Origin: Escherichia coli
GTDB lineage: Bacteria; Pseudomonadota; Gammaproteobacteria; Enterobacterales; Enterobacteriaceae
Assembly (NCBI RefSeq): GCF_024223415.1
Contig: NZ_CP100500.1
Length of the DNA: 64,000 nucleotides
Reading direction: 5' to 3' (one strand)
Each line of letters starts with the position of its first letter. Position 1 is the first letter of the stretch. The translations under genes and the position numbers were made by a program. Below, piece after piece: positions 2,631 to 47,076 of the stretch. The notes beneath the pieces were generated by a model that made no database searches, was not told where the DNA came from, and saw nothing but the letters and a program-made list of their open reading frames with translations.

Positions 2631-2659
2631 ATCGGCACTGGCGACTGGAGATGTGGTTA

Positions 2660-4938: not shown

Positions 4939-4961
4939 ACAGGAAAATTATTTTTTATAAA

Positions 4962-4986
4962 CAGGGGATTATTGAGTAATCCCCTG
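4962..4986. terminator. Hairpin between the convergent 608-aa gene and int
   Basis: Inverted repeat CAGGGGA...TCCCCTG flanked by A/T runs. Confidence 0.35.
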
Positions 4987-5122
4987 CTCATCAAAACCCA
5001 CTTTCCTGACAATCTGATAACTATCAGCTCAATACATTTGACATAAAAGAGATCCCTTAATTATTACCGTTACGGTCACAATCACATATCAAATCATGAT
5101 TGTACAATATACATTTTCACTA

Positions 5123-6325: not shown

Positions 6326-6343
6326 ACGCTAATTCCTGTTACT

Positions 6344-6367
6344 CTGGTATGCCATCTGGTATGCCAT
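6344..6367. repeat. Tandem direct repeat CTGGTATGCCAT x2 just upstream of the int start; candidate arm-type integrase site
   Basis: Two perfect adjacent 12-bp copies 19-44 bp upstream of the int ATG. Confidence 0.4.
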
Positions 6368-6482
6368 TATCTTCACGCTTCAGTCAGAATACAGTAGATG
6401 ACATCAGACAGTAAAATATGCAATATACTGTTTATAATCAAATTTTATGACACAACAGGACTCATTCAGATTCATTTCAGGC

Positions 6483-6499
6483 GGTCCCCCTCACCGCCA
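6483..6499 (+). other. tRNA 3'-end-like sequence (CCCCTCACCGCCA); candidate att core or host serW 3' remnant at the island boundary
   Basis: Resembles a tRNA-Ser acceptor/CCA end but no complete tRNA (no T-arm) precedes it; followed by an intrinsic terminator. Confidence 0.35.
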
Positions 6500-6543: not shown

Positions 6544-6692
6544 CATTTTATCTGCCTGTACGGCAGTGAACATGGTGGGCGGGTGGAGTATGTTACCAGT
6601 GAATTTCTAAGCTGCCTGTACGGCAGTGAACGTTTGCTGCAACCGCTAGCCAAGACGGTAGGTTTTTCTAAGCTGCCTGTACGGCAGTGAAC
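6544..6692 (-). CRISPR. Orphan type I-F CRISPR mini-array: 3 repeats, 2 spacers, no cas genes in the window
   Basis: Minus-strand repeat GTTCACTGCCGTACAGGCAGCTTAGAAA (the E. coli I-F repeat) at 6604-6631 and 6665-6692 plus a degenerate terminal copy at 6544-6571; spacers of 32-33 nt. Confidence 0.85.
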
Positions 6693-6903: not shown

Positions 6904-9180
6904 TTAATGCGCTGCTTCCGCCTTGTGCTTTTGTGCACTCTGAAATCCGTAAGTCAGCTCATTTTTCTCTTTATCCAGCGCGACGGTGACCTGACCGCCG
7001 TCCACCAGCGAACCAAACAGCAGTTCGTTGGCAAGCGGTTTTTTCAGGTTGTCCTGGATGACACGCGCCATCGGACGAGCGCCCATTGCCCGGTCGTAAC
7101 CTTTCTCGGCCAGCCAGTTACGCGCTTCCTGGCTCACTTCCAGAGAAACACCTTTCTGATCCAGCTGAACCTGCAACTCGACGATGAATTTATCCACCAC
7201 CTGATGGATCACGTCAGTTGACAGATGATCGAACCAGATAATGTTGTCGAGACGGTTACGGAATTCCGGTGTAAAGATCTTCTTGATCTCTTCCATCGCA
7301 TCGGTGCTGTTATCCTGGTGGATAAGACCAATGGATTTGCGCTCAGTTTCCCGTACCCCGGCGTTAGTGGTCATCACCAGTACCACGTTACGGAAGTCCG
7401 CTTTGCGTCCGTTGTTATCGGTCAGCGTACCGTTGTCCATCACCTGCAACAGAATATTGAACACGTCCGGATGCGCTTTCTCGATTTCGTCCAGCAGCAG
7501 CACCGCATGTGGATGCTTGATGACCGCATCAGTCAGCAAACCGCCCTGATCAAAACCAACGTATCCCGGAGGCGCACCAATCAGACGGCTGACGGTATGG
7601 CGTTCCATATACTCGGACATATCAAAGCGCAGAAGCTCAATGCCCAAAGCTTTCGAAAGCTGTACCGTCACCTCTGTTTTCCCGACCCCGGTAGGACCGG
7701 CAAACAGGAACGAACCGACCGGTTTATGTTCGTGACCTAAACCTGCACGCGCCATCTTAATGGCTTCAGTCAGCGCCTCAATGGCTTTATCCTGACCGAA
7801 GACCAGCATTTTCAGGCGATCGCCGAGGTTTTTCAGGGTATCGCGGTCACTCTGAGAAACACTCTTCTCTGGAATGCGTGCAATACGGGCCACCACGGAC
7901 TCAATATCCGCCACATTAACGGTTTTCTTGCGTTTGCTTACCGGCATCAGGCGTGCGCGAGCGCCCGCTTCGTCGATAACATCAATCGCTTTATCCGGCA
8001 GATGACGATCGTTAATGTATTTCACCGCCAGCTCTACCGCCGCACGCACCGCTTTTGCGGTATAACGCACGTCGTGGTGCGCTTCATACTTCGGTTTCAG
8101 GCCATTGATGATTTGAACAGTTTCTTCGATCGACGGTTCAGTAATATCAATTTTCTGGAAGCGACGCGCCAGAGCACGGTCTTTCTCGAAAATGTTGCTG
8201 AACTCCTGATAGGTTGTCGAACCAATTACGCGAATTTTACCGCTGGAGAGCAACGGTTTGATTAGGTTAGCCGCATCGACCTGACCACCAGACGCTGCAC
8301 CCGCACCGATAATGGTGTGGATCTCATCAATAAACAGGATGCTGTTAGTGTCCTGCTCCAGCTGCTTGAGCAACGCTTTAAAACGTTTTTCAAAGTCGCC
8401 GCGATATTTTGTGCCCGCTAACAGAGAACCGATATCGAGAGAGTAAATCGTACAGTCAGCCATCACTTCCGGCACATCGCCCTGAACAATTCGCCAGGCA
8501 AGACCTTCTGCAATCGCGGTTTTACCGACACCAGATTCCCCCACTAGCAGCGGGTTGTTTTTACGGCGACGGCAGAGAACCTGAATAGCACGCTCCAGCT
8601 CCTTCTCACGACCAATCAGTGGGTCGATTCCGCCCACGCGCGCAAGCTGATTCAGGTTCGTCGTGAAATTCTCCATACGTTCCTCCCCACCAGCTTGTTC
8701 TTCGCTGTTTGGCTGGCTGCCAGGATCAGAAGACTGTGTCGGCTCGTCTTTACGCGTGCCATGAGAGATAAAGTTCACCACATCGAGACGGCTGACTTCA
8801 TGTTTACGCAACAGATATGCCGCCTGCGACTCCTGTTCGCTAAAGATAGCGACCAGAACGTTTGCACCGGTAACCTCATTGCGACCGGAGGACTGGACAT
8901 GGAAGACCGCACGTTGCAGTACACGCTGAAAACTCAGCGTCGGCTGTGTGTCGCGCTCCTCTTCACTGGCAGGCAGAACGGGTGTGGTTTGTTCAATAAA
9001 GGCTTCCAGTTCCTGACGGAGCGCAACCAAATCCACAGAACACGCTTCCAGCGCCTCCCGGGCAGATGGGTTACTGAGCAGCGCCAGTAACAAGTGCTCG
9101 ACGGTCATAAACTCATGACGGTGCTCGCGCGCTCTGGCGAAAGCCATATTTAAACTGAGTTCCAGTTCTTGATTGAGCAT
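6904..9180 (-). CDS. clpA: ATP-dependent Clp protease ATP-binding subunit ClpA
   Basis: Product begins [35 protein letters not shown] and carries two AAA+ Walker A motifs ([16 protein letters not shown]); start trimmed from the track ORF. Confidence 0.95.
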
Positions 9181-9210
9181 AGGCACCTCCCCCAATTTTT
9201 ATGCCTGCAT

Positions 9211-9531
9211 TCAGGCTTTTTCTAGCGTACACAGCAATGGATGCTCATTCTCCCTCGCGTACTTGTTCACCATCGCCACTTTGGTTTCTGCAACCTCGGC
9301 GGTAAAGACTCCGCAAATGGCCTTCCCCTGGTAGTGAACAGCGAGCATCAATTGCGTTGCACGTTCTACATCATAAGAAAAGAATTTTTGTAACACGTCA
9401 ATAACAAACTCCATCGGAGTGTAATCATCATTGACTAATATCACTTTATACATAGATGGCGGTTTTAGCGCGTCGCGAACTTTTTCTTCCGCCAGTTGAT
9501 CAAAGTCCAGCCAGTCGTTCGTTTTACCCAT
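9211..9531 (-). CDS. clpS: ClpS adaptor protein
   Basis: 106 aa, [47 protein letters not shown], directly upstream of clpA. Confidence 0.95.
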
Positions 9532-9616
9532 TGTCAGTTATCATCTTCGGTTACGGTTATCGGCAGAACGCCCTGCCGCTGACAAGAGCTTATTTGCCTG
9601 ACCAATCTACTCCACA

Positions 9617-9633
9617 TGATAGATAACTATCAT
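9617..9633. other. Left att core candidate TGATAGATAACTATCAT
   Basis: Near-identical copy TGATAAATAACTATCAT at 20087-20103. Confidence 0.4.
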
Positions 9634-9705
9634 TTATATCATTTAGTTAATTAGTCTTTATTTTTCATTATGTTGCAAATAACAAGCCCGTCAAAAACAG
9701 TGATA

Positions 9706-9760
9706 TTAACTACACCATTAACTACACCGCTTCACGAACAATATCGAACAACCGCGAACA
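9706..9760. repeat. Left-arm repeats: AACTACACC x2 followed by CGAACA x3 (candidate integrase or accessory-factor sites)
   Basis: The same motifs recur in the same orientation at 19946-20078. Confidence 0.4.
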
Positions 9761-9880
9761 AAGATCAACACGCTTTAATCATTATCATTTTCCGGCTATC
9801 CGTCATGAAGCTGGTGGATGATCTGCGTGGTGATTTCCACCATTCAGAGCAGGTGCGGTCATCATGACCATGCCATAACA

Positions 9881-9905
9881 AAAACCCCATATTCGTGGTT
9901 TTTCT
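9881..9905 (+). repeat. 25-bp direct repeat copy 1 (AAAACCCCATATTCGTGGTTTTTCT)
   Basis: Second copy AAACCCCCGGATTCGTGGTTTTCCT at 10518-10542; the pair flanks a hairpin-rich non-coding segment. Confidence 0.5.
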
Positions 9906-10517
9906 GTGTCGGGGCTATTCTGCTGTTGCCGTGCTGGTGGATATTCTCCGGTATGCGGCTCCCCATATCGGCATCAGGCCCACCAGCGTGAAGCGTTTTT
10001 CATTTTTCGCGGGTATAAAAAATCGATGGGGCGGGCAGTCCTGAAGACGTCAGGGTACAGAGATTTGACCCGCCCCTCCCTGTGCATGAGCACAATAAGT
10101 AACCGAAGGCGGAATTCCGCCCTCGGTACTTACATATGAGAAACGATATTTCTTCCACCGATACCCTTTATTTGGGTATCGCGAGTAAGCCCCAAAATCT
10201 GGGTGTTACTCTTACTACCCAAACTACGGGTAGTTTCCGTAGTTTCATGGTCGAGTTGCAAATCTGCAACTCACCCACCAGCCAGCGCAATGTCGCATTA
10301 TCAGTCCTCAGATGTGAGGGATGTAGCCAGCTTTTCCCCCAGTGGGGATTATCCAGTTACCGACGGTTTAACCGCCTGTACCAGCACAACGAAAGAATTT
10401 GCGGGTAGCTTTAAACTACTCACAACATCCCATCTTACAGGCCGTGCCTTTCTAACTTTTTACAATGCAATAAGTCAGGTAACGCTATGCGTTCCACCGT
10501 GTACACCGCGCCAGTAA

Positions 10518-10542
10518 AACCCCCGGATTCGTGGTTTTCCTG
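10518..10542 (+). repeat. 25-bp direct repeat copy 2
   Basis: See copy 1 at 9881-9905. Confidence 0.5.
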
Positions 10543-10554
10543 AATATCAGGAAT

Positions 10555-10929
10555 CTACCGCCGCAACCGTTCCGGCTTCTTCCACTGATAAGTGTTTTTC
10601 GCGCTCTCCCTCCGTTGTTGAGAACGGCGACGGTATGCCAGCAACTCAAGGACTCTGGTTCGTATGTTGCGCATATCCACGCCGTTAAGCTCAATACCAT
10701 CACGGCGCATCACCTCAGCAACAACACACGCGTAATTTTCGGCTATCACGCTGTCCGGCTGCGTGGCCTCCTGTTCGCCAGCCTGCTGGCTGATTCCGGT
10801 AATACTGCGGATTATCCCGAGCGCTTCGGTCTCGGTCATGGTCATGGCCTCCATAGTGATGGCGGGTCCTCCTTGTGGGGTGCCCTGCCACGGGGCGGGA
10901 GCATCGCGGAAAAAGGCTAGTTTTTGCAT
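10555..10929 (-). CDS. Hypothetical protein of the satellite packaging module
   Basis: 124-aa ORF downstream of the Nu1-like gene; no recognisable domain; start uncertain. Confidence 0.45.
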   Translation of the reverse strand: MQKLAFFRDAPAPWQGTPQGGPAITMEAMTMTETEALGIIRSITGISQQAGEQEATQPDSVIAENYACVVAEVMRRDGIELNGVDMRNIRTRVLELLAYRRRSQQRRESAKNTYQWKKPERLRR

Positions 10930-11090
10930 TTTTATTCGTTATCACCACCAATGCAATATATTGATATGACTTGATGTTTTATTTTTCGGTGTCGATTTCG
11001 ATTGTTTTTTGTTCATCACTGACGCATAACGCCCACCAGCGCAACGCTGAAAGCCAGTCAGTAAACTGGCTTCGGTCATTGTGCACTACG

Positions 11091-11645
11091 TTACTTGTCT
11101 TTATCCGGCTGAAACTTATCAGGCACATTTCCGGTAGTTTCCATCAGATAATCGGACAGCATTCGCGGGATGTTTTCATCAAGTTTTGTGCATGCGTTAC
11201 AGGCTCTGACAACTTCTTTTTTCAGGCCATCCAGCATGGCGGGGGTCATCTGTGGGAAGCTCCTTTGCATAGTAAGCGGGAGGCTGTCCATGATTGATGA
11301 AATCTGACTCGCCAGTTTTGAAAGCGCGTACATGCAAAACTCTGTATCAATCACGTCACCGCGATCGCGCTCGTTTTTAAGTTCCTGCGCCTCCGCCTGT
11401 GCTGTCAGTAATCTGATCCTGACTCGTAAAAGTTCATCATCGTCAATCTCGCCTTTGTCGTTTGTAATCTGGCTGATTGCATTGTTAACCCGATTATCTA
11501 TTACACTGGCGACATCATAAAACGTCTCACGGCCCTTACGCTCGACGGGAATCACTCCCCACTTATCGAACGCAGTGGCGCTTACTCGGCAGCTTTTCGC
11601 CATGTTTTTTTTATTCATCAGGTGCGATTTCATCAATACCCCCAC
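11091..11645 (-). CDS. Terminase small subunit, lambda Nu1-like
   Basis: LLRVRIRLLTAQAEAQELKNERDRGDVIDTEFCMYALSKLASQISSIMDSLPLTMQRSFPQM...LDENIPRMLSDYL aligns with lambda Nu1; probable true start at the MNKKNMAK Met near 11618. Confidence 0.8.
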   Translation of the reverse strand: MGVLMKSHLMNKKNMAKSCRVSATAFDKWGVIPVERKGRETFYDVASVIDNRVNNAISQITNDKGEIDDDELLRVRIRLLTAQAEAQELKNERDRGDVIDTEFCMYALSKLASQISSIMDSLPLTMQRSFPQMTPAMLDGLKKEVVRACNACTKLDENIPRMLSDYLMETTGNVPDKFQPDKDK

Positions 11646-11727
11646 TTAATTAATGCTTCAGGTTGGTGTGTTGGTGTTATCTTTCCATTTTTATTCATAG
11701 AGATAGAGCGAACAACAAAACCACCAC

Positions 11728-11790
11728 CAACCCGAAAAGGCTCATAAATAGCGAAAATCCGCAAGGTCGACGCCCCGTAACGGGTCCACA
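11728..11790 (-). other. Lambda-type cos site (cosN/cosB)
   Basis: Minus strand reads ACGGGGCGTCGACCTTGCGGATTTTCGCTATTTATGAGCCTTTTCGGG, matching the lambda cos sequence as I recall it (ACGGGGCGGCGACCTCGCGGGTTTTCGCTATTTATGAAAATTTTCCGG); about 120 bp upstream of the Nu1-like gene. Confidence 0.8.
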
Positions 11791-11805
11791 TGCCGGAAAG
11801 GACCC

Positions 11806-11835
11806 ATAAAAAATAAAGCCGGACTACTCCGGCTT
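11806..11835 (-). terminator. Rho-independent terminator after the FinO/ProQ-like gene
   Basis: Stem AGCCGGA / TCCGGCT followed on the minus strand by a T-rich run. Confidence 0.5.
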
Positions 11836-11858
11836 CGTCTCTTCATGTGGTCAGGGTT

Positions 11859-12539
11859 TTATGCTTTCCGTACGCCCGAGGAACTGGCATTTTTCAGAAT
11901 AATATTATGCCCTGCTGGTGGCTTACCGTTATGCTTATTTTCTGCCTTCATGTTTCTGCGCTCCTGCTGTTTTTTCTTCATCTCATCCAGTCGCTTCCCC
12001 GCGTTCAACTGGTGCTCCTGTGTCACCTCCCCGCACGGATGGCCTTTCAGGTCGTAACGCACGCCACCAGCCATCAGGGAACGGTAATATCGCACTGAAC
12101 TGACATAATACGCCAGCGTTGCGCGAAGCGCTCCCTGACCTAATGAAATACCTCTCGCAGTAATATCCTCCATCAGGTCATCAAATATGCCAACCTTAAG
12201 CGGTCTGGGCGATTCCTGGCTGAAAAGTTCAGGCCAGAGCGCGGCAAGGCGTTCAACGCGTCTGATATTTTTTTTCCGGCTCTTTTCTGATTTGCGTTTT
12301 GCTGCCGTCTTCTGTTGTGTTTTCTGCTCGCGGCTCTGCTTTTGCGCTGGTGTGGTTTTATCCGGCTGTTCAGCCTCCTGCGTCTTTTTCTGCGGTGTGC
12401 CGTATATGCCTTTTGGTTTTCGGTTAATGGTCAGCTTTGTCATGTTCTCCCCCTTTGTGCTGTTCCACCAGCGGCATCTGCTACCCCGTGTCGCTCCCGC
12501 TGGTGTCGTGTTTCCCCGCCTGTTAATAACCGTCATCAT
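11859..12539 (-). CDS. FinO/ProQ-domain RNA-binding protein with a Lys/Gln-rich N-terminal region
   Basis: RPLKVGIFDDLMEDITARGISLGQGALRATLAYYVSSVRYYRSLMAGGVRYDLKGHPCGEVTQEHQ aligns with the E. coli ProQ N-terminal domain (RPLKIGIFQDL...RLYTSSWRYL...RVDLDGNPCGEL); start uncertain. Confidence 0.75.
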   Translation of the reverse strand: MMTVINRRGNTTPAGATRGSRCRWWNSTKGENMTKLTINRKPKGIYGTPQKKTQEAEQPDKTTPAQKQSREQKTQQKTAAKRKSEKSRKKNIRRVERLAALWPELFSQESPRPLKVGIFDDLMEDITARGISLGQGALRATLAYYVSSVRYYRSLMAGGVRYDLKGHPCGEVTQEHQLNAGKRLDEMKKKQQERRNMKAENKHNGKPPAGHNIILKNASSSGVRKA

Positions 12540-12843
12540 TTACGTTATCAGGGTAATCACGCCATATTTCATCAGTAAGCGACGGTAGCCCCATCTGTTG
12601 TATTGTCCTGTCTGCGGCCCTTCTGACTGCGTGAACATCATAACGGTTTTCAGGTATCGGGCGCTTTGCCTTCCTGATACATTCCCTTGCTCTCATTGCC
12701 GCAAGTTCTCTGTGCCTGTCTTCCTGAAGAGTAATCATCACATCCTGCCACCTTCTGGCAGCCCGTCGCCACAGTCCCCTGCTCTCGAGTTCTTCTGCTG
12801 TCGCGTCGCTTATTGTCCGGTTCTTCGGTGTGCTGTTGTTCAT
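12523..12843 (-). CDS. PerC-family transcriptional activator-like protein
   Basis: N-terminal EELESRGLWRRAARRWQDVM resembles the PerC/Pch signature (recalled, not searched). Confidence 0.55.
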   Translation of the reverse strand: MNNSTPKNRTISDATAEELESRGLWRRAARRWQDVMITLQEDRHRELAAMRARECIRKAKRPIPENRYDVHAVRRAADRTIQQMGLPSLTDEIWRDYPDNVNDDGY

Positions 12844-12860
12844 GTTGCTCCCCGCCTGAT

Positions 12861-13271
12861 TCAGAAGGGTATATCATCTCCGTAGGGGTCATCGCCTCCC
12901 GCTGGTGGCTTATTCCCCTGTGCGCCTGTGGTTTTGCGTGTTTTTCCGCCCGGTCGCACTGTCCGCGCACTGATTACGCTGTCTGCGATAACCTGCCAGC
13001 CCTGCCGCGTTTCCCCGTTCTGTCCGGTCCACTGGCTCACCTGCATGTTACCCGCCACGCTCAGGAGTTCACCCTTGCGGTGCTTTGCCAGTGCTTCGGC
13101 CTGTCTGCCAAACGCCAGCACAGATAACCACATCGTCGCCGTTCCGTCATCTGCCTGGCTGCACGGAAGGGGGACCGCCATACTCGCCATCGCCATTTGT
13201 GTCCCCTTGCTGGTGGTCTTTAACTGCGGGTCAGCCACCAGCCGCCCGTAAGCCGCTATCTGTGCTGTCAT
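12861..13271 (-). CDS. ssb: Single-stranded DNA-binding protein (SSB)
   Basis: OB-fold-like N-terminus (IAAYGRLVADPQLKTTSKGTQMAMASMAV), Gly-rich linker and the acidic C-terminal tail DDIPF. Confidence 0.8.
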   Translation of the reverse strand: MTAQIAAYGRLVADPQLKTTSKGTQMAMASMAVPLPCSQADDGTATMWLSVLAFGRQAEALAKHRKGELLSVAGNMQVSQWTGQNGETRQGWQVIADSVISARTVRPGGKTRKTTGAQGNKPPAGGDDPYGDDIPF

Positions 13272-13525
13272 GCTGTATGCTCTCCGGTTTTAACGTTGAT
13301 GGTTGTCACCTGTTCCGCTCCGGCAATCTCCCGTTCTGTCAGCGTGGCAAAATTTGCCGCTACCGTTGTCATGAATGCGCTTATCAGTGCGGGATGTGCT
13401 TTCGCGTATCCTTCTCCCGCGCTGCGGTCGATAATTTTTATCGCCACCCTCAGCCAGTGCTCTGTAAGGTCAATGGCGCGGTTATGTGGTTTCTTCTGAT
13501 TATTAAGTTTTCCTGATGTGTGCAT
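13268..13525 (-). CDS. Hypothetical protein
   Basis: 85-aa ORF overlapping the ssb start by 4 nt (translational coupling). Confidence 0.5.
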   Translation of the reverse strand: MHTSGKLNNQKKPHNRAIDLTEHWLRVAIKIIDRSAGEGYAKAHPALISAFMTTVAANFATLTEREIAGAEQVTTINVKTGEHTA

Positions 13526-13570
13526 TTTTATTTTTACCCCCTCGTTTAAAAAGTTTTGTGTTGTGGTGCA

Positions 13571-13806
13571 CCTCCTCTACCTCTCTACACAATCATCTTT
13601 CAGGTCAGTAATGGCGCGGCTTTCAGCGGGGTAGAGGGCTTTTTTGGCCCTCTACCTGCCATCTACCACCCCCTCACAAATGCCCTGAATTATGGTAGAG
13701 GGTGTAGAGGGCTTTTAAGTACCTTCTACCTGCCATCTACCCAATCTATCAACATGAAATATATGTAATTATTTTCTTAAGGTAGAAGGGGTAGAGGGCT
13801 TTTGTC
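13571..13806. repeat. Iteron cluster; candidate satellite replication origin
   Basis: At least three copies of GGTAGAGGGCTTTT and repeated CTACCTGCCATCTACC, including the palindrome GGTAGAGGGC-TTTTTTG-GCCCTCTACC, immediately 3' of the primase gene. Confidence 0.55.
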
Positions 13807-13811
13807 TAAAA

Positions 13812-15560
13812 CTATAAAAACGCGTCGCAGTCGTCTGTTGTTGTCACGTTGGTTTGCGTAACCCCTTTAATCCTGCGCGTTATATATTCATGTCCGTAAA
13901 CTTTCGCCGCTGGCTTCATGGCCTTGCTGAACTCAGCCACGTTCAGCGGTTTGCTCCTGCCTGCATACGCCATAAACGCCAGATAGACGCGGTAAAGGCT
14001 GTTTCTGGTCGTGTACTTCACGGAATCGCCACCGCCCCCCATCATCAGGCCACGTGCTTCCTCCAGAAAATTCAGGAACTGGCAAAACTCAATAACCGGA
14101 TCCGTTTGCTGCTTTATCGCCAGTGCTTCATCACCGTCACGCTGTTCCAGTAGTAAAGCCCGCGCCTTTTCAGGGTCTGCAAAGTTCGCCAGTAATCGGC
14201 GGATAATGACGGGGATTTCAGCCGCAATCCTTTCCGGTAGCTCCCTGTCTTTTTCAGCCTCACTGACGATATTGTCGAAACGAAAAATCACGCGACGACG
14301 TGCCACACCTCCGGCCCGTTCGGTGAATATCATCGGGTTATTGTTGGTCGCCAGCACCACCGCCCTGATTACAGCCGTGAAACGCTTTTCGTATTTCGGG
14401 TTAATTTCCACGGGGTCACCGCCCGTGATTTTCTTGATGCCCGTTCCTTCGCCTGTATATTTCGGCTGGTCTGCCAGGACGATAAGACGACTCCCGACAA
14501 CCTGCGCACGCCCACCAGCATCATCAAGCGATGTCATCTCAGCGCTTACCGTGTTCTGTTTCCCTGCCAGAAGGCTGGCTATGTGCGTGAATGTACTTTT
14601 ACCGCTCCCGCCGTCTCCGGTGGCCTCAATAAACATCTGCCAGTCGTACCGGTTCGCCATAATCATGTACAGCGCGGCACATATACGCATCATCTTGCGC
14701 GGGTCTTTTCCGGCTGCGTGCTCAAGCCATTTATGAAAGTTTGGCGCGTTATCGCGGATGTTCTCCCCAGGTGCTGGTGGCGTGTACTCAATGCCATTGT
14801 GCGTGGTGATCCAGTTCTCCGGCGTGTGCGGGGAAAATTCCCCCGTTTTCAGGTCAAGCGCACCATTGGCGAACGGCAGCAAATCGCCGGACGGCTCGCC
14901 CATTGGTTCGGCAATAACTTTTAACGCTTCCACGGCGTTATTGATTACGCGCTTGCTGAAAGTGGCCCTGTGCTCTGAATAGATCGCCACCATTTCGCGG
15001 CTCAGTTCCATTGTGCTGACCGGACACCATACCCCGCCGCGCCATACGTGAACGATTTCACTTTCCGGATGCACACAAACGCCATCAAATCGACCAGCAA
15101 GCATCTGTGCGCGCTCACTGTCTGCCATTTGTGCCAGTTGCGTATTTTTCTGCTCCGGCATGGTAAGCCCTGCAGCAATATTTTCACGCTCAGCATTCAG
15201 ATAACGCCGCCAGTTTTCACACTTCTGACCGTGCATTCCTTCGGGGTAAAAATTTGCGTCCTGTACGCCAGCCGCCGCCAGCTTCTGACCAATCGCCTTT
15301 ATCATTACTGGCGCAAGATATCCGGCCCTGAATATACGCACGGATTTTCTGCCTTCCGGCACAATTTGCAGCTTATCCAGTTCGGATAACTGCTGCTCCC
15401 CAAGCCACACAGGAGGCTCATTATCTCCGGCCATACGCGCGTCATGTTCCTGCCATTGTTTCGCGTGTGCCCAGGCATCACTACCCGCAAAAATAATGAC
15501 TTCAGTTCCTTTGTGTTTTATGCCGCGTGACTGCAGTTTTACGTTCGGTGCCAGTTTCAT
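13812..15560 (-). CDS. Replication protein: primase/helicase (P4 alpha-like, P-loop NTPase)
   Basis: 582 aa; Walker A GDGGSGKSTFT; size and position match satellite pri-rep genes. Confidence 0.8.
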   Translation of the reverse strand: MKLAPNVKLQSRGIKHKGTEVIIFAGSDAWAHAKQWQEHDARMAGDNEPPVWLGEQQLSELDKLQIVPEGRKSVRIFRAGYLAPVMIKAIGQKLAAAGVQDANFYPEGMHGQKCENWRRYLNAERENIAAGLTMPEQKNTQLAQMADSERAQMLAGRFDGVCVHPESEIVHVWRGGVWCPVSTMELSREMVAIYSEHRATFSKRVINNAVEALKVIAEPMGEPSGDLLPFANGALDLKTGEFSPHTPENWITTHNGIEYTPPAPGENIRDNAPNFHKWLEHAAGKDPRKMMRICAALYMIMANRYDWQMFIEATGDGGSGKSTFTHIASLLAGKQNTVSAEMTSLDDAGGRAQVVGSRLIVLADQPKYTGEGTGIKKITGGDPVEINPKYEKRFTAVIRAVVLATNNNPMIFTERAGGVARRRVIFRFDNIVSEAEKDRELPERIAAEIPVIIRRLLANFADPEKARALLLEQRDGDEALAIKQQTDPVIEFCQFLNFLEEARGLMMGGGGDSVKYTTRNSLYRVYLAFMAYAGRSKPLNVAEFSKAMKPAAKVYGHEYITRRIKGVTQTNVTTTDDCDAFL

Positions 15561-15856
15561 TTTTTACCCCTGAATCCGTTAATCATGGTTTTCATCTTCT
15601 GAATATTGGCGCGTGCTTTCTCCCTGCTGGTGGGCACGTTACGCGGTACGGCCTGCACAAGAGAAAAATCACGCACAAACTGATAAACAGGCATCACGCA
15701 ATCATATTCGTAACCTTCATGGCGGTAGGTGATGCGCCGTTCTGCCACGCCTTTAATCGTTACCGTACCGCCGTAGTTATCACGGAAAATATCGCCGGGA
15801 CGGATTTCAGGCCGAGTGAGGCCGCTGGCAGTAAAGCCAGAATTTTTCTTTTTCAT
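15557..15856 (-). CDS. Hypothetical protein (99 aa), coupled to the primase gene
   Basis: Stop overlaps the primase start (ATGA). Confidence 0.6.
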   Translation of the reverse strand: MKKKNSGFTASGLTRPEIRPGDIFRDNYGGTVTIKGVAERRITYRHEGYEYDCVMPVYQFVRDFSLVQAVPRNVPTSREKARANIQKMKTMINGFRGKK

Positions 15857-15886
15857 GGTTTTATTTTCCTGTCAGTGATTCCGGCT

Positions 15887-16060
15887 TTATTCCGGCGCGA
15901 ATACAGGCTTCAGAAAAAAAGCCAGAGAACCAATAACCTCATTATTTCTAAGGCGGCATTGCGATTTCACTTTCCCTTTATCCAGGAATATCAAAACGCG
16001 CCCCGTATAATCAGATGGCACATTAAGCACTACAGGTAAGTGCGCTTCATGATTATTCAT
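15887..16060 (-). CDS. Hypothetical small protein (57 aa)
   Basis: Start trimmed to the ATG preceded by AGGAGGTGG; N-terminus MNNHEAHLPVVLNV; start overlaps the stop of the upstream gene. Confidence 0.5.
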   Translation of the reverse strand: MNNHEAHLPVVLNVPSDYTGRVLIFLDKGKVKSQCRLRNNEVIGSLAFFLKPVFAPE

Positions 16061-16340
16061 GGCTAACCACCTCCTGGAATTTTCTTCTGTAACGCGCCTC
16101 TGCCACATATTCAGCATAGTCCGACGCAATATTGAGAATATCGCTACCCGTTCCTGAATGTTCGGCGGTTTCCAGTAAAAAACATGCAGCTTTTACCATG
16201 TCAGCAACACATAACAGCGCAATATCTGTATCTTCCGGTGTGCCATCAAATTCCTGTTTCAGGGCATTAAAACGATCATCACGCATAACCCCATATTCAC
16301 AATCAGCAATCAGGATGGCTTTGGCCTCATTCAGTGCCAT
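16053..16340 (-). CDS. Hypothetical protein; N-terminal extent uncertain (may start at 16496)
   Basis: Only the C-terminal 95-147 codons of the 662-aa track ORF look protein-like (MALNEAKAILIADCEYGVMRDDRFNALKQEFDGTPEDTDIALLCVADMVKAACFLLETAEHS). Confidence 0.4.
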   Translation of the reverse strand: MALNEAKAILIADCEYGVMRDDRFNALKQEFDGTPEDTDIALLCVADMVKAACFLLETAEHSGTGSDILNIASDYAEYVAEARYRRKFQEVVSHE

Positions 16341-16494
16341 ATCAGCGGTAAGCTGTGCGTAGGCCAGCAAATGCGGGATTATTGCCCCTGTATATTCCGG
16401 CTCTCTGATAATGTGGTCGGATGTGTTGATTAAATAGTTTGTGCGAAAAATGCACCTGTAACCATCAGTTAACAACGGATATACAGGGGGGACC

Positions 16495-16665
16495 ATGAAT
16501 GATAAGGGGGTGCCGTTTGATGTGCTCCTGCAAAAGCTGAATGCTGCACGCGCCGCAAGGGAACGTGAGCGCATGAGTAATAACCCTGTCCCTCCTGAAT
16601 TACCTCGCCCTGAACATTTTCCGCTTGAGGATTTCATCAGGGGACGAATCCGAACAAAACGATAA
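16495..16665 (+). CDS. Small protein (56 aa), paralog of the 16909 ORF
   Basis: ATG preceded by a G-rich Shine-Dalgarno; shares the PxxFPLE(D/R)FI motif with ORF 16909..17103; below the track length cutoff. Confidence 0.35.
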   Translation: MNDKGVPFDVLLQKLNAARAARERERMSNNPVPPELPRPEHFPLEDFIRGRIRTKR

Positions 16666-16908
16666 CCGCCGCCGTGATATGAGGCATCACGACGCAATGC
16701 ATTACAGGTGAGCACCATGAACAAATCCATATTATCCCCCACAGTTCTGGACGTAAACACAAAGCAGCGACAGATATTATTACGCGCCGTCATTAAAGCC
16801 AGACACGAGAAATTAAACCAAATCTTAAAATAAGATACGCCGCTACCGCTGTAAGTCTTCATCAGAAACAGAAAACGCCAGAGCAGATGAGCACGGAGGT
16901 AACTCTTT

Positions 16909-17103
16909 ATGAAAATAAACGAATCAGGGGAAATTACCGAAGCCAGCGTGGTACGCCAGCGGAGGCGGGAACGACGGGTACGGCCCCCCGCGCCATCCGA
17001 TAATTTCCCGCTTGAGCGCTTCATCAGTGAACGGCCCCGCATACGCTGGAACGGCACAACCCCATACCCCGAGGAGAGACAGACAAAAAACAAACAGCGA
17101 TGA
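16909..17103 (+). CDS. Small protein (64 aa), paralog of the 16495 ORF
   Basis: GGAGGT Shine-Dalgarno 9 nt upstream; C-terminal FPLERFISERPRIR. Confidence 0.4.
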   Translation: MKINESGEITEASVVRQRRRERRVRPPAPSDNFPLERFISERPRIRWNGTTPYPEERQTKNKQR

Positions 17104-17382
17104 TGAAATCTGGAGGCCAATACCATCACCCAGCCAGTCGGGGATTGCTGGCGGGCTTCCTGTTCGCTGGTGGCCCCGATGGTAATAACGCGTGGTTGTG
17201 CTGTGCTCAGGGCGATAAAACGCCAGATGTATTTATTCAGGTTGTGCGGGTCCCGCCCTTGCGGGTGTGTGGTATGATTTAACATAGCTACCTCGATACG
17301 CTTTCTATCGTTGGTGGTTAGAAGCCCCGTTACTGCTCCAACAGTGCGGGGTTTCGTCGTTTCTGCACCTTTCATCAACAAG

Positions 17383-17434
17383 GTGTTGAACACCAATTTA
17401 AGCCTAGGTGTTAAACACGCCAAGTGTTGAACAC
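17383..17434 (+). promoter_or_regulatory. Three palindromic operator-like sites GTGTT(G/A)AACAC
   Basis: Sites at 17383-17393, 17408-17418 and 17424-17434, about 50 bp upstream of the small gene at 17485. Confidence 0.55.
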
Positions 17435-17484
17435 TTATTTTTTTTCCTGCATACTGCATTTGTTTTTTGTAAGGGGTACACAAC

Positions 17485-17664
17485 ATGGCGACAAAAGCAG
17501 TAAACGCAAAATCACAAACAGTTGCGGCAAGGGTTCCGCATGAAGTTATGAACAATGTTGAGGCGGTAAAAATGCCTGGTGAAAGTACAGGGCAGTTTGT
17601 AACAGCAGCATTAAAGCGAGAAGTTGAATACCGCCAGCGCCGCAAGGCCAAAGAATCAGAATAA
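17485..17664 (+). CDS. Small DNA-binding protein, ribbon-helix-helix-like (59 aa)
   Basis: AAGGGG Shine-Dalgarno; N-terminal strand-like TVAARVPHEVMNNVEAV then a basic helix; downstream of the palindromic operators. Confidence 0.45.
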   Translation: MATKAVNAKSQTVAARVPHEVMNNVEAVKMPGESTGQFVTAALKREVEYRQRRKAKESE

Positions 17665-17712
17665 TCACTATCAGCGCCGTGGTGTGAGGTACTGCGGCGC
17701 ATTGTTTTAAAG

Positions 17713-17913
17713 GTGATAATTATGAATAACCAGGAACTACAAAATAAAGCATTATCAATTATCATGCGCCAGCGTGAGAAAACCCGCAGGGAAATAAATA
17801 AGGCATTAACCCGTACTGAAAATCTTAAAGTTCCTGATAAGTTCGCCCTTGATCCTTTTGTCGAGAAATACCCTCGGCGCTTAAAAGCAAACAAAAACCG
17901 CCCACCTGGCTGA
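17713..17913 (+). CDS. Hypothetical small protein (66 aa)
   Basis: AGGTGA Shine-Dalgarno; basic helical sequence. Confidence 0.4.
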   Translation: MIIMNNQELQNKALSIIMRQREKTRREINKALTRTENLKVPDKFALDPFVEKYPRRLKANKNRPPG

Positions 17914-18051
17914 CAATCCACCAGCAAGCCACCACACTGGACACATTGCCCACCAGCCAGCAAATCGCTATGATGTTCGGGCTTATGTTTAGTGTTTTCC
18001 CATTGGCGACCGCCCCCGGTCGCCTTTGTTTTATGTGTCATATACTCCCCT

Positions 18052-18348
18052 TTACGCTGCCTTGCCTGAATTAATGCGATCCCGGCTTTTAACCCATTCC
18101 ATAACCTCGGACAGCAGCCAACCTACAGAACGCCCACCAAGATTACGGCGAGACGGAAAGCTCCCTTTTTTCTCCAGTTCGTAGCGTGTAGTGCGACACA
18201 CTCCAGTTAACTTACGACATTCATCCTCACGGATTACGCGATCTTCATTTATTTCACGCATACAAAAACCTACATAAAAATTACGTATATAAACTTTTCT
18301 CTTAGCTGTAGATATATGAGATCGGATATTACTTAGATTCTTTTTCAC
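18052..18348 (-). CDS. AlpA-family transcriptional regulator
   Basis: C-terminal TRYELEKKGSFPSRRNLGGRSVGWLLSEVMEWV matches the AlpA pattern; true start may be an internal Met. Confidence 0.7.
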   Translation of the reverse strand: MKKNLSNIRSHISTAKRKVYIRNFYVGFCMREINEDRVIREDECRKLTGVCRTTRYELEKKGSFPSRRNLGGRSVGWLLSEVMEWVKSRDRINSGKAA

Positions 18349-18680
18349 CTCTTAAATTAAAAACACAACCATGCTAAAGGCTTTGTTCGCTAAGGTTCGT
18401 AGAAGCTCGTTAGTGTTTAAAATCGTGTCACGAGTTTTTAAGCGACGCAACAAAAAATGTCGTCATTTGGCATGTCACCTGAATTACCTCATTAAAAACA
18501 AATAGATAAACCATCAGATGTTGGAACAATCAAGAAACAGAGAATAAGAACTCAGAAGAAGACATTTCAATTTTTTTCGATAGTTGACACATATAAAGAG
18601 AAGATATTTGCAGATATTCCCCGATATTCTAAGATCTATTCACGGCTGTAATCTCTTAAAGAAAAAACAGCCGTAATTTG

Positions 18681-19919
18681 TCAAGAATTTTGGGGGTAAA
18701 TTCGCGGGGTCATAACAACGATTTTTTCATCATTGTTCTGGAGAAGCTCGAGACGGTCTACCCATAGATTAAGAGCGTCACGCTTTGCATCGAGATAACG
18801 GGAGTGGTTATAGACGCGTTGCATTCCTGGCATCTGGTGGGCAGTAAGCTGTTCAACAATATGCGGATCCACGCCTAAATCGTTCAGCATGGTTGTAAAT
18901 GTGTGCCGGATGTCGTGCAACGACCAGGGGGCTTGATTAATGCGTCTGTGTGCCGTTCTTCCGTACTCTGCTACGGATGATTGCCCTTTCAGTTCTCCAA
19001 GCAATAAGCCCGTGTGCCTGTTCTGCTCCACCAGCTTCATGACGAACGGCAAGATCGCTTCCGGTATTGGCCTGAATATTGCTACCTTCGTTTTGCTGTG
19101 TTCTTTCGGCACAGTCCAGAGCATTTCTTTAAAATCCCATTCCCGAACCTCGGAGCGTCTTAGCTCAGTGGTACGGCATCCGAAGACAATCAGAAGGCGA
19201 ATTAAAGCGCTGTAGTACGGCGGGAAAATTTTTTCATCCAGTGCGCGGAGTAGCTCGCCAAGCTCCTTGTTTGTTAGCACTCGCTCGCTTATTTCTGCTT
19301 TTTTTCCCACATCACCTACGACCATATCATCAAGAACGTTACTGACGGCGTAGCGACGTTTACGGCAGTACTTAAGCGCCTGTTTGCATACCTGCAACAA
19401 AAAGCCGGCTGATACCGGATTACGCTTAGCAAGCTGGTCAAAACAGGCCAGCCAGTGGCGTAGCTCGCATTTATCCAGCGGCATAGCACCAATCTGGCTG
19501 ATTATGTGCTTATTGATACGGCTTTTCAGTGATTCGTGGTCAGTGCGCTTTTCCTTCGCATACGACTCAAGCCAGTAAGTGAGCGCGTCCTTAACCGTCA
19601 CGGGGGCTAACGCTTCCTGCACTGTGTGATTAAGCTCATGGCGTGGATTTTTCCCCTCCGCCAGCCAGGCGCGACACTGTGCCGCTTTTTCCCTGGCTGC
19701 TTTCAGGCTCAGATCGGGATAGTTGCCCAGTCTCAGGCGTTCCGGTGATACCTGCCTGCCAGTTCCGGCCCTGTAAGTGAAATACCAGGTTAACAGGCCG
19801 CTGGTGGAATGTCTTACGCTAAGATTGCCACCGTCATTAAAAAAGGCGTTTTTTGTGGTTGGTGATCCGCTTAATTTTCGTAAAAGAGTGTCGCTAAGTC
19901 TATGAATTGCGCTGCTCAT
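18681..19919 (-). CDS. int: Tyrosine integrase
   Basis: 412 aa; catalytic region LHDIRHTFTTMLNDLGVDPHIVEQLTAHQMPGMQRVYNHSRY. Confidence 0.9.
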   Translation of the reverse strand: MSSAIHRLSDTLLRKLSGSPTTKNAFFNDGGNLSVRHSTSGLLTWYFTYRAGTGRQVSPERLRLGNYPDLSLKAAREKAAQCRAWLAEGKNPRHELNHTVQEALAPVTVKDALTYWLESYAKEKRTDHESLKSRINKHIISQIGAMPLDKCELRHWLACFDQLAKRNPVSAGFLLQVCKQALKYCRKRRYAVSNVLDDMVVGDVGKKAEISERVLTNKELGELLRALDEKIFPPYYSALIRLLIVFGCRTTELRRSEVREWDFKEMLWTVPKEHSKTKVAIFRPIPEAILPFVMKLVEQNRHTGLLLGELKGQSSVAEYGRTAHRRINQAPWSLHDIRHTFTTMLNDLGVDPHIVEQLTAHQMPGMQRVYNHSRYLDAKRDALNLWVDRLELLQNNDEKIVVMTPRIYPQNS

Positions 19920-19945
19920 GTTTCGCGTTTCCGGTCATCAAAATT

Positions 19946-20078
19946 AACTACACCATTGACTACACCGTGCATCGTACAAGGGCAAACCGTGACGAACAAG
20001 AGCGAACAAGTAAAACAAAATTTTCCTTTATAATCATAGCGATGAATGCACACAAAACACTACCACGAACACCCGCGA
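19946..20078. repeat. Right-arm repeats: AACTACACC / GACTACACC followed by CGAACA motifs
   Basis: Same motifs and orientation as the left arm at 9706-9760; overlaps the int promoter region. Confidence 0.4.
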
Positions 20079-20086
20079 ACACTAGA

Positions 20087-20103
20087 TGATAAATAACTAT
20101 CAT
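20087..20103. other. Right att core candidate TGATAAATAACTATCAT
   Basis: Direct repeat of 9617-9633 with one mismatch. Confidence 0.4.
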
Positions 20104-20323
20104 CTATCGTTGGCATCAGCGACATCTGTCACATTCCTGTCAATAGCGTTAACTGCTTCAAATTTTTGATTCATACCTGCCCCCTGTCCCCTGTCAAATG
20201 CTTGACGGCTCGCCCTAATTCTCTAAATTGTATTTCTAGAGTTGGCGAGGTTTTGAACAGCCCCCTCTCTGACCCCGGTTTATTCCATCTTACTTGTATA
20301 AGATTTGCGAAGGATGTCGAAGC

Positions 20324-20548
20324 ATGGAAAAGGGTACTGTTAAGTGGTTCAACAATGCCAAAGGGTTTGGTTTCATCTGCCCTGAAGGCGGCGGCGAAGA
20401 TATTTTCGCTCATTATTCCACCATTCAGATGGATGGTTACAGAACGCTAAAAGCTGGACAATCCGTTCAGTTTGATGTCCACCAGGGGCCAAAAGGCAAT
20501 CACGCCAGTGTTATTGTGCCCGTCGAAGTAGAAGCGGCAGTCGCATAG
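20324..20548 (+). CDS. cspD: Cold-shock-like protein CspD
   Basis: MEKGTVKWFNNAKGFGFICPEGGGEDIFAHYSTIQMDGYRTLKAGQSVQFDVHQGPKGNHASVIVPV; start trimmed to the ATG with AAGGA Shine-Dalgarno. Confidence 0.95.
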   Translation: MEKGTVKWFNNAKGFGFICPEGGGEDIFAHYSTIQMDGYRTLKAGQSVQFDVHQGPKGNHASVIVPVEVEAAVA

Positions 20549-20581
20549 CTCTTCTGTCTCATTGTGTACATCCTAAAGGCA

Positions 20582-20611
20582 AAATGCCAGCCCGATCGGC
20601 TGGCATTTTTA
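20582..20611. terminator. Bidirectional terminator between cspD and macB
   Basis: AAAATGCCAGCC-CGAT-CGGCTGGCATTTT hairpin flanked by A and T runs. Confidence 0.6.
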
Positions 20612-20620
20612 TCTCAAAAA

Positions 20621-22567
20621 TTACTCTCGTGCCAGAGCATCTACTGGATCCAGTCGTGCCGCATTTCGTGCGGGTAACCAGCCAAATAAAATCCCGGTGA
20701 CCGTCGAGCAGAGAAACGCCAGCAGCAGTACCAACGGTGAAAAACCAATCTCCCAGCCGGGTAAGAAAAGCTGCAAGGTGAAAGCAATTAACAGTGACAG
20801 TGTTATTCCCAACGCGCCACCGACCAGGCAAACCAGTACGGCTTCGATCAGGAACTGTTGCAAAACATCGCTTGCTCGCGCACCTACAGCCATGCGAATG
20901 CCAATTTCCCGCGTCCGCTCGGTCACTGACACCAGCATAATATTCATTACACCAATACCGCCCACTACCAGCGAAATCACCGCCACCAGCGTCAGAAACA
21001 GTTGTAAAGTACGTGTGGTCTTTTCAACGGTTTTCAAGACGCCGTCCATGTTCCAGGTAAAGAAATCCTTCTTACCGTGGCGCAGTGAAAGTAAACGCGT
21101 GAGTTGCTGTTCCGCCTCGGCGCTGTCAAATCCTTCTTTCACCCTGACAGTAATGGAGTTCAGCCACGACTGGCCCATAACTCGCCCGGACATCGTGCTG
21201 TAAGGTAGCCAGACACGCAGCACTTTACTGCTACCAAACATCGACTGTTTTTCTTCCGCCACACCAATGACTCTGGCGGGCATATTGCCGACCAGAATCA
21301 CCTCGCCAACCACATCTGCTTTATGGGGGAAAAGCTGGCGGCGAGTATTACTGTCGAGAACCACGACCTGCGCACGACCGTTCAGCTGTTCCTGATTAAA
21401 GGTGTTTCCTTCACTGAAGGTCATGCCATAGACATTAAAATAATCGCCGCTCACGCCATTGGCACTGGCAGCAACATCAACATTGTTGTAACGCAGGCGC
21501 AGGTTTTGCGAGACGGCAGGTGTGGCTGAAGCGACCCACGGTTGTTTTTGGATGGCGATTAAGTCATCGTACTTCAGCGCCTGCTGATATTGCGGATCGT
21601 CATCGCCAAAATCTTTCCCGGGATAGACATCAATAGTATTCGTACCAATAGAACGAATATCCGCCAACACCATTTGTTTGGCGGCGTCGCCCACCACGAC
21701 AATGGAAACCACCGACGCAATACCGATTATAATCCCCAGCATGGTCAGTAAAGTACGCATTTTATTCGCTGCCAGCGCCCGCCATGCCATCGTCAGCGCC
21801 TCGTTAAAACCGCTGACAAACTGCCGCCAGCCAGACACCGTGTTGACAACAGGTTCCGTCCCGCCAGCAACATTCACTTTTTCAATGGCGGGAGGATTGC
21901 GCACAATTTCGCCGTCGCGAATTTCGATCACCCGCTCGGCCTGAGCAGCGACCTGCGGATCGTGGGTGACGATAATCACCGTATGTCCGCGATCGCGCAG
22001 CTGATGCAGGATCGCCATCACCTCTTCGCCAGAATGGCTGTCCAGTGCGCCGGTTGGTTCATCGGCAAGAATTACCTGACCGCCGTTCATCAATGCCCGC
22101 GCGATGCTGACGCGCTGTTGCTGACCGCCCGAAAGCTGTGCCGGATAATACTCTGTACGGTCTTCCAGCCCCAGCCGTTGCAGCAACTCCTGGGCGCGAA
22201 GCAGCCGCTGTTTCCGCTCAAGACCGGCATAGACGGCGGGTACTTCAACGTTCTGCTCGGCGGTTAAATGCGAAAGCAAATGGTAACGCTGGAAAATAAA
22301 GCCGAAATGCTCGCGGCGCAGTTGCGCCAGCGCATCGGCGTCCAGCGTGGCAACATCCTGACCGGCGACGCGATAGGTGCCGCTGGTGGCCTTATCCAGA
22401 CAGCCGAGAATATTCATCAGGGTCGATTTACCGGAACCCGAAGCGCCAACAATCGCCACCATCTCACCAGCATAAATATCGAGGGTGATGCCCTTCAGCA
22501 CCTCAACCTGCTCATCACCGGCAGGATAGCTGCGACGAATATCCTTTAATTCGAGCAAAGGCGTCAT
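20621..22567 (-). CDS. macB: Macrolide export ABC transporter ATP-binding/permease MacB
   Basis: 648 aa; ABC ATPase motifs ([18 protein letters not shown]) plus a C-terminal FtsX-like permease. Confidence 0.95.
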
Positions 22568-45533: not shown

Positions 45534-45583
45534 TTATTCATTTGCCGGAGTGGGCGAACACCCATTCCGGCAAAATCACTTCT

Positions 45584-47065: not shown

Positions 47066-47076
47066 TACGCCCTACC

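Follow-up and report, generated by a model that had tools for sequence, protein, structure and literature searches.

A probable phage-inducible chromosomal island with two putative cos sites between clpS and cspD of Escherichia coli

The element and its described relatives

Two phage-inducible chromosomal islands (PICIs) of Escherichia coli have been described at the chromosomal attachment site (attC) named 'cspD-clpS', namely EcCIIHE3034 (NC_017628.1, 920272-930825; 10.5 kb) and EcCI18098 (10.8 kb), both with the att sequence ATGATAGTTAT (PMC6092414, table S1), and both encode a small terminase (TerS; PMC6092414). The prototype of the Gram-negative cos PICIs, EcCICFT073, uses helpers of the lambda/phi80 type, and capsids of full size take up its DNA in the form of multimers (PMC6092414, PMC6739421). 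Here, we describe an element of 10,470 bp that separates clpS from cspD in a stretch of 64,000 nucleotides of E. coli contig NZ_CP100500.1 (assembly GCF_024223415.1), hereafter the window. An integrated PICI of the published cspD-clpS group is by far the best explanation for this element, which carries, besides a lambda-type cos site (cos1), a second putative cos site resembling those of phages SfV and phiP27 (cos2).

The insertion is precise. Indeed, the gap between clpS and cspD measures 322 bp in K-12 MG1655, holds only the 24-codon gene yljB and runs uninterrupted through the empty site (...CTCCAC-ATGATAGATAACTATCAT-CTATCG..., with the K-12 spacer aligned to the window), and relative to this site the element begins and ends at the att core. 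The two copies of the core, an imperfect palindrome of the form ATGATAG-ATAA-CTATCAT, are 18 bp long and differ by one mismatch; their stretch of exact identity is the 11-bp sequence ATAACTATCAT, of which the published att core is the reverse complement. A first-pass annotation of this DNA had proposed a 10.5-kb satellite between clpS and cspD, flanked by imperfect 17-bp direct repeats, and had expected the two genes to lie about 0.3 kb apart in K-12. The insertion and the K-12 distance are both borne out by this comparison, and the repeats and coordinates proved essentially right.

The gene content is likewise that of a PICI. Family searches recovered every homology on which that annotation had built its gene set and order (integrase, AlpA, primase/helicase with iterons, single-stranded DNA-binding protein (SSB), PerC-like and FinO/ProQ-like proteins, cos and a Nu1-like TerS), and the core genes int, alpA, pri-rep, ssb, terS and those for the PerC and FinO/ProQ proteins all lie on the minus strand (table 1). 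Among the features by which PICIs were delimited by Fillol-Salom (2018), the sequence displays a size within approximately 8-15 kb at a dedicated attC, int together with alpA, pri-rep together with an iteron origin, and a packaging device, and it is devoid of structural, large-terminase (TerL) and lysis genes. Indeed, neither the NCBIfam and PHROG scans nor the RefSeq annotation of an identical element revealed any capsid, portal, tail, large-terminase or lysis gene.

The element has the attC, the att core and the size (10.5-10.8 kb) in common with EcCIIHE3034 and EcCI18098, as well as the order of alpA, the icd-like gene, the DUF4222 gene, pri-rep, the origin, ssb, the Nu1-type terS, the lambda-like cos and the last conserved gene. 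The resemblance to EcCIIHE3034 extends to the length of the integrase (412 amino acids) and to nucleotide identities of 95% for int/alpA, 88% for pri-ssb and 87% for terS-cos. However, several modules set the two islands apart. Positions 9988-10542 of the window hold cos2 and hairpins, where IHE3034 has other DNA; positions 11842-12940 hold the FinO-like and PerC genes, where IHE3034 has genes for major capsid and decoration proteins (locus L002, 4439-5841); an extra cassette of 1.2 kb (15892-17115) has no equivalent in IHE3034, and the module at 17705-17930 differs. Conversely, IHE3034 possesses a second lambda-like cos, inverted, between the last gene and terS (L002, 3041-3105), no SfV-type cos2, and an Icd-like gene that retains its stop codon. 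Since the attC and the PICI group are both published, the element is not new in kind; it is a rare new variant. Among 5,426 complete E. coli genomes, the sample used for all counts given here, its integrase stands next to yljB/cspD in 366 and its FinO plus PerC module is present in 80, whereas the whole variant was retrieved from only five.

EcCICFT073 resembles the element in its int-alpA-pri-rep-ori layout, its lambda-like cosN/cosQ and its private cosB. However, it has no TerS and encodes instead a 144-amino-acid protein, Rpp, that reprograms the TerS of the phage; it also has another att site, and neither of its two cos sites is other than lambda-like. Membership of this Rpp-type subgroup (Rpp of 144-153 amino acids, no TerS) is at odds with the full-length TerS encoded here; moreover, no Rpp-like protein was found in the element, and none of its proteins matched the RppC chains in the Protein Data Bank (PDB).

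Capsid-forming PICIs (cf-PICIs) of the EcCIEDL933 type share with the element their backbone genes, the conserved last gene and a hairpin-rich end, and one of them occupies the same att site together with cos2. Unlike the window, cf-PICIs encode capsid, protease, portal, connectors, HNH nuclease, a P27-family TerS and TerL, and have a distinct cos of their own. As this set of head and packaging genes is entirely absent from the element, its identity as a cf-PICI is ruled out. A precedent for two packaging systems on one island exists in Staphylococcus: Quiles-Puchalt et al. are said to have found in 2014 that the PICI SaPIbov5 carries both its own TerS system and a copy of the cos of HNH-dependent helpers, which would give it two helper classes. 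SaPIbov5, however, is a Gram-positive island without sequence relationship to ours, and its TerS route is of the headful (pac) type, whereas both routes would be of the cos type here.

Two putative cos sites and the packaging of the island

Between the FinO-like gene and terS, and thus upstream of the latter, lies a sequence that is by all its matches a lambda-type cos site, cos1. Its minus strand (11740-11810) reads GGGTCCTTTCCGG...GTTACG/GGGCGTCGACCT/TGCGGATTTTCGCTATTTATGA; the cosQ core is identical to that of lambda at 13 of 13 positions, and cosN with its flank at 17 of 18, a single base distinguishing the predicted 12-nucleotide cohesive end from that of lambda (GGGCGTCGACCT versus GGGCGGCGACCT). 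The likeness ends after cosN, as the spacer leading to terS is unrelated to lambda cosB with its R sites. TerS itself aligns with lambda Nu1 along its entire length at 37% identity (direct BLASTP, E=1e-36), and the alignment takes in the C-terminal segment, where LDENIPRMLSDYL stands opposite LDELIPGLLSEYI. In lambda, this C-terminal segment of Nu1 contacts the large terminase gpA. Pfam and the BLASTP comparison with Nu1 are the basis of the family assignment; a PDB sequence search with TerS matched neither Nu1 nor RppC. The closest phage TerS, gp1 of N15, is just 47% identical, which points to a satellite-specific TerS lineage. Given this distance and a cosB-like spacer so unlike that of lambda, TerS and cosB look like a private recognition pair joined to a shared cosN/cosQ cutting site.

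In the same orientation as cos1 and 1.7 kb from it, cos2 consists of an 83-bp block that appears to be a complete cos site of the SfV/phiP27/HK97-like type. The junction of the SfV genome ends falls at 10044/10045, and the block follows the joined SfV ends nearly base for base (GGGAGGGGCGGGTCAAATCTCTGTACCCTGACGTCT/TCAGGACTGCCCGCCCCATCG...). It also matches the annotated cos-site of phiP27 (CGCCCGCCCC) and the physical ends of SfV, SfIV, SfI, SfII and ST64B, and it is flanked by the inverted sequences GGGGCGGG...CCCGCCCC. More than 2,000 E. coli genomes contain a match to this block; in the prophage that we examined (L009), it is 98.8% identical and lies in the spacer that separates the gene of an HNH endonuclease from a terS of the P27 family. 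Overall, cos2 is 95-99% identical to the prophage copies, both halves round the cleavage point being present, and phage homology is limited to the 83-bp block, which is itself conserved among diverged phages.

The block is not peculiar to this variant. The left arm of the island is joined to cos2 in 158 genomes, and cos2 was found in three PICI types at the cspD-clpS site, including a PICI with a capsid/protease fusion and a cf-PICI. The latter, in strain FFFEB2 (L015, 5001-5195 and 7636-7754), has an SfV-type cos2 at its end and, between hnh and terS, a distinct cos of its own, which is related to cos2 but clearly different from it.

From these observations, we tentatively propose, as a possible rather than a probable reading, that the island is a dual-cos satellite: cos1 would be served by the TerS of the island together with a borrowed gpA-type TerL, and cos2 by an SfV/phiP27-type terminase with its HNH nuclease, so that two unrelated and common families of E. 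coli prophages would act as helpers. As part of the same reading, a cos2 cassette would have passed from one classical PICI to another at this att site and reached even a cf-PICI there. The first-pass annotation had deduced a lambdoid cos helper; cos1 and TerS do point to lambda-like helpers, but with a cos2 of the SfV/phiP27 type the range of helpers probably extends beyond them.

The life cycle that we infer follows EcCICFT073 by analogy for the alpA, excision, replication and multimer steps (PMC6092414, PMC6739421). A helper phage would switch on alpA, AlpA and Int would excise the island across the 11-bp identity, and Pri-Rep would fire the iteron origin, giving rise to concatemers. The island TerS would then bind its private cosB and recruit the gpA-type TerL of the helper, the DNA being cut at the lambda-like cosN/cosQ of cos1. 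Because this variant has no capsid or capsid-size genes, packing would proceed as multimers, four copies amounting to 41.9 kb, i.e. 86% of the lambda genome (48.5 kb). Through cos2, the same concatemer would be packaged by an SfV/phiP27-type terminase and HNH nuclease, three copies representing 31.4 kb, i.e. 85% of SfV. Indirect support for the mobility of the cspD-clpS group comes from a metagenome-derived contig of IMG/VR (IMGVR_UViG_3300019373_000108, 10,780 bp; L023), a close relative with capsid and decoration genes, cos1 and cos2. One of its ends displays the attP junction that was predicted, its core having the 'A' of attR, and the other an attL-clpS junction (1-117, 9900-10780), a combination suggestive either of excised or concatemeric DNA beside integrated copies or of a tandem insertion. 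Searches of viral contigs for cos1 and cos2 returned no contig ending at a cos site.

Another explanation of cos2 is that it represents a non-functional scar of recombination with an SfV/phiP27-type prophage, packaging then depending solely on cos1, the island TerS and lambda-like helpers, and we regard this as a real possibility, though less likely than not. The element contains no HNH, P27-type TerS or TerL gene, so that cos2 would be usable only with the enzymes of a helper, and this absence of cognate genes speaks for a scar; the left-end region is moreover mosaic and also holds a fragment of a KilA-N gene, and IHE3034 is without cos2. However, what has been kept is exactly the conserved block, with both halves and at the identity to resident prophage cos sites given above, and it has been kept across the 158 genomes and several PICI architectures. 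Carrying a bare helper cos is furthermore an established satellite strategy, exemplified by P4 and SaPIbov5 (as cited in 10.1101/2022.09.08.507074).

Besides this possible scar, several points weigh against the island as we picture it. Transfer of a marked IHE3034 island reached only approximately 40 colony-forming units after mitomycin C (PMC6092414), so that TerS-type islands of this group are without a demonstrated efficient helper, and no helper phage lies within the 64-kb window. Pri-Rep scores 108.3 bits against the P4-family model TIGR01613, just below the NCBI cut-off of 108.7, and the Icd-like gene is without its stop codon, a loss of uncertain weight. Finally, the attP junction of L023 could stem not from excision but from two insertions in tandem.

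As to the identity of the element as a whole, an integrated PICI accounts for the data much better than the following candidates. A decayed lambdoid prophage that kept int, cos and Nu1 by chance is very improbable: annotations routinely call islands of this sort defective prophages, and the lambda-like cos and the Nu1 homologue could be taken for remnants, but hundreds of genomes show a compact 10.5-kb layout with both att cores and intact open reading frames (ORFs), the replication module is of the P4/PICI type rather than lambdoid, the element was found to hold no remnants of repressor/Cro, structural or lysis genes, and no phage TerS exceeds 47% identity to its TerS. It is extremely unlikely that we are dealing with a P4-like satellite relying on a P2-type helper, even though the primase domain is of the P4 family, the regulator is AlpA/Vis-like, an Icd-like gene is present, and PICIs and P4 have one attC in common in E. 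coli. Indeed, homologues of sid, psu, delta and epsilon appeared in no family scan, the 19-nucleotide cos of P2/P4 was searched for in the element and not found, and the cos present is of the lambda type and paired with a Nu1-family TerS. Hardly any credence can be given to an integrative element moved by conjugation, to which a FinO/ProQ-domain gene of plasmid ancestry might point, as phages and plasmids alike are known to carry genes with a FinO domain (PMC9977716), no relaxase, coupling protein or oriT-like feature was found in the element, and two cos sites with a TerS argue for transfer in capsids.

Gene modules, hairpin-rich end and chromosomal context

Table 1. Features of the element and its flanks (positions in the window; E-values refer to the family or structure named in the same cell).
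Feature	Position	Strand	Description
clpA	6904-9195	minus	
clpS	9211-9531	minus	
attL core	9617-9634		ATGATAGATAACTATCAT; identical to K-12 attB; foreign DNA to the right
P' arm	9635-9765		two TTAACTACACC repeats (9706-9728); three CGAACAA (9735-9761), exact 10-bp phasing
cos2	9998-10080	minus	putative complete cos of the SfV/phiP27/ST64B class (HNH-dependent, HK97-like packaging)
hairpin-rich region	10095-10300	minus	five to six near-perfect hairpins, the last a strong GC hairpin (10102-10127)
last conserved gene of E. coli PICIs and cf-PICIs	10555-10839	minus	approx. 94 amino acids; phrog_1561
terS	11091-11633	minus	Nu1-family small terminase, full length, 180 amino acids; Pfam PF07471 Phage_Nu1, E=1.6e-21
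cosB-like spacer	11634-11763	minus	130 bp, element-specific; inverted repeat TTCAGGTTGGTG/CACCAACCCGAA (11657-11668 and 11725-11736)
cos1	11764-11810	minus	putative lambda-type cosN and cosQ; cosQ GGGTCCTTTCCGG (11805..11793); predicted 12-nucleotide end GGGCGTCGACCT (11775..11764)
terminator-like hairpin	11815-11836	minus	between cargo genes and cos1
FinO/ProQ-domain RNA-binding protein	11859-12443	minus	cargo; PDB ProQ 5NB9, E=5.5e-18; FinO 1DVO, E=2.6e-15
PerC-family regulator	12523-12843	minus	cargo
ssb	12861-13271	minus	SSB, tail ...DDIPF; TIGR00621, above cut-off
conserved 85-amino-acid protein	13268-13525	minus	between origin and ssb; phrog_1231
putative replication origin	13574-13803		iterons round an AT-rich stretch; the primase gene lies immediately upstream
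pri-rep	13812-15560	minus	P4-family primase with D5-type helicase domain; phrog_864, E=7e-169
DUF4222 protein	15557-15856	minus	99 amino acids; Pfam DUF4222, E=9.7e-23
147-amino-acid acidic protein	16053-16496	minus	phrog_2512; in frame with the Icd-like ORF
rare cassette	16495-17103	plus	three small ORFs (56, 38 and 64 amino acids), each with a good ribosome-binding site
Icd-like small protein	17103-17285	minus	phrog_6196
candidate operators	17383-17434		three GTGTTRAACAC palindromes in the divergent icd-like/ylcI-like region
YlcI/YnfO-family gene	17485-17664	plus	followed by a terminator-like hairpin
63-amino-acid ORF	17722-17913	plus	followed by a terminator-like hairpin
alpA	18052-18261	minus	AlpA-family regulator/excisionase, transcribed in the same direction as int; Pfam PF05930 Phage_AlpA, E=1.2e-15
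int	18681-19919	minus	tyrosine integrase, 412 amino acids; phrog_1, E=1e-67
P arm	19943-20086		two TTRACTACACC (19944-19966); two CGAACAA (19993-20009); two CGAACAC (20066-20082)
attR core	20087-20104		ATGATAAATAACTATCAT; G->A at position 7; foreign DNA to the left
cspD	20324-20548	plus	followed by macB

The hairpin-rich region next to cos2 is non-coding and conserved at the 3' end of PICIs, and it may act either as RNA or as DNA. It was found in 763 genomes, where it is annotated in none, and in relatives it directly follows the last PICI gene on its 3' side. As RNA, it would fold with a minimum free energy of -90.4 kcal/mol (z = -9.1), and the covariation analysis showed compensatory changes in five of 58 pairs, with a term of +1.56, the sequences being too alike to prove an RNA. 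A search of Rfam (E<=1) over positions 9000-21000 retrieved only the cspD leader and nothing within the element. That the FinO/ProQ-domain cargo protein acts on a transcript of this hairpin-rich end is a weaker possibility.

The replication module combines a Pri-Rep protein with the Walker A motif GDGGSGKST and a putative origin in which the iteron CCTCTACC is present in ten copies (at most one mismatch, five per strand) over positions 13574-13797, versus 23 copies in the other approximately 63.8 kb of the window. Two features may take part in regulation. The palindrome GTGTTRAACAC occurs three times, each time in the stretch from which the icd-like and ylcI-like genes diverge, for 0.04 occurrences expected; these palindromes are likely operators and candidates for those of the main switch of the island. 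In the DUF4222 protein, the Pfam domain spans residues 16-68, with RPGD at residues 19-22. The regulator RgdR is 99 amino acids long, its residues 20-68 forming a conserved core that starts with RGD at 20-22 (PMC3378721), and a regulator of its family has been reported for all E. coli PICIs (PMC3378721; PMC6092414, table S1). The DUF4222 protein thus probably belongs to the RgdR family, judging by its length, the span of its domain and the position of its motif.

The segment 16053-17103, which comprises the rare cassette, recurs with 100% identity in two further PICI backbones (L024, L026) while its flanks differ by 7-10%, indicating that it moves between islands as a unit. With zero differences from these backbones, it offers no substitution pattern by which to choose the coding strand; a homologue search with the 64-amino-acid ORF yielded no match. 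Two of the cassette ORFs end in the C-terminal motif F-P-L-E-x-F, which the ORF at 17722-17913 has as well. No defence system was detected when all unassigned ORFs were scanned with PADLOC.

On the opposite strand of the cassette, RefSeq reports, for the identical element, a 410-amino-acid 'Icd-like' gene. Its family matches cover only residues 1-61 (Icd-like) and 288-409 (phrog_2512), and its middle part is antisense to the three small plus-strand ORFs. As the stop codon of the Icd-like gene was lost at the recombination junction, the ORF reads on to 16053, and the 410-amino-acid gene is probably a read-through annotation artefact.

At the ends of the island, the motif TKRACTACACC, of which TTRACTACACC is the P-arm form, occurs four times in the 64 kb, twice in each arm and nowhere else, for 0.03 occurrences expected, and repeats of CGAACAA or CGAACAC stand in both arms at exact 10-bp phasing. 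Such an arrangement is typical of binding sites for Int arm-type domains and excision factors, for which these repeats are candidates. A scan of the window detected no tRNA gene; the element therefore does not use a tRNA att site.

The insertion falls between clpS and the tiny gene yljB (20100-20174, minus strand). The attL core lies upstream of clpS, 85 bp from its start codon, and the attR core overlaps the last five nucleotides of yljB, including its stop codon, which stays intact. The start codon of cspD is 219 bp from the att core, and the sole promoter-like match upstream of cspD (20202-20229) is located approximately 100 bp outside the insertion. The earlier view that the element splits the divergent clpS-cspD promoter region is not supported. 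A promoter-like match pointing outward, towards clpS, is present in the left arm (9694..9667, minus strand; TTGACG-16-CATAAT, 10 of 12 positions, by consensus only).

Several other features of the window deserve mention. A second mobile island (1-6485) abuts clpA on its other side, with a P4-type integrase (5123-6325), a fragment of an IS1 transposase (2238-2630) and an unassigned ORF of 608 amino acids (3112-4938). The serW tRNA gene, expected between clpA and infA, was not found in the window. Beside clpA (6604-6692) lie two type I-F repeats of the clustered regularly interspaced short palindromic repeat (CRISPR) kind, 61 bp apart (Rfam CRISPR-DR4, 50 bits each), which resemble the orphan clpA-infA array of E. 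coli. Further away, 3.5 kb (45541-49052) encoding a sulfatase-like protein and the IIB and IIC components of a phosphotransferase system (PTS) are missing from strain Br_112_kylling, and 0.8 kb (60719-61496) with an ORF for a 183-amino-acid hexapeptide-repeat acetyltransferase, beside the small RNA RybB (60633-60711), are missing from the comparison strain.

Implications for the cspD-clpS islands

The satellite family and the site are both published, the element is an ordinary representative of that family, and its presence is not news in itself. Unlike the Rpp type, however, the TerS-encoding PICIs of E. coli have neither a worked-out packaging mechanism nor an efficient known helper. The parts of most value are the putative dual-cos architecture, the apparently satellite-specific Nu1-type TerS with what looks like a private cosB, and the conserved hairpin region. 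For curators, the 410-amino-acid 'Icd-like' gene, the unannotated cos sites and the hairpin region are of direct use.

If the dual-cos reading is true, it would explain the near-absence of transfer in published tests with resident prophages. Should both cos sites work, the helper range of these islands, present with cos2 in 158 of the 5,426 genomes, would be wider than assumed, and this wider range would affect the spread of their regulatory cargo (RgdR, PerC, FinO-like) and of any other cargo they carry.

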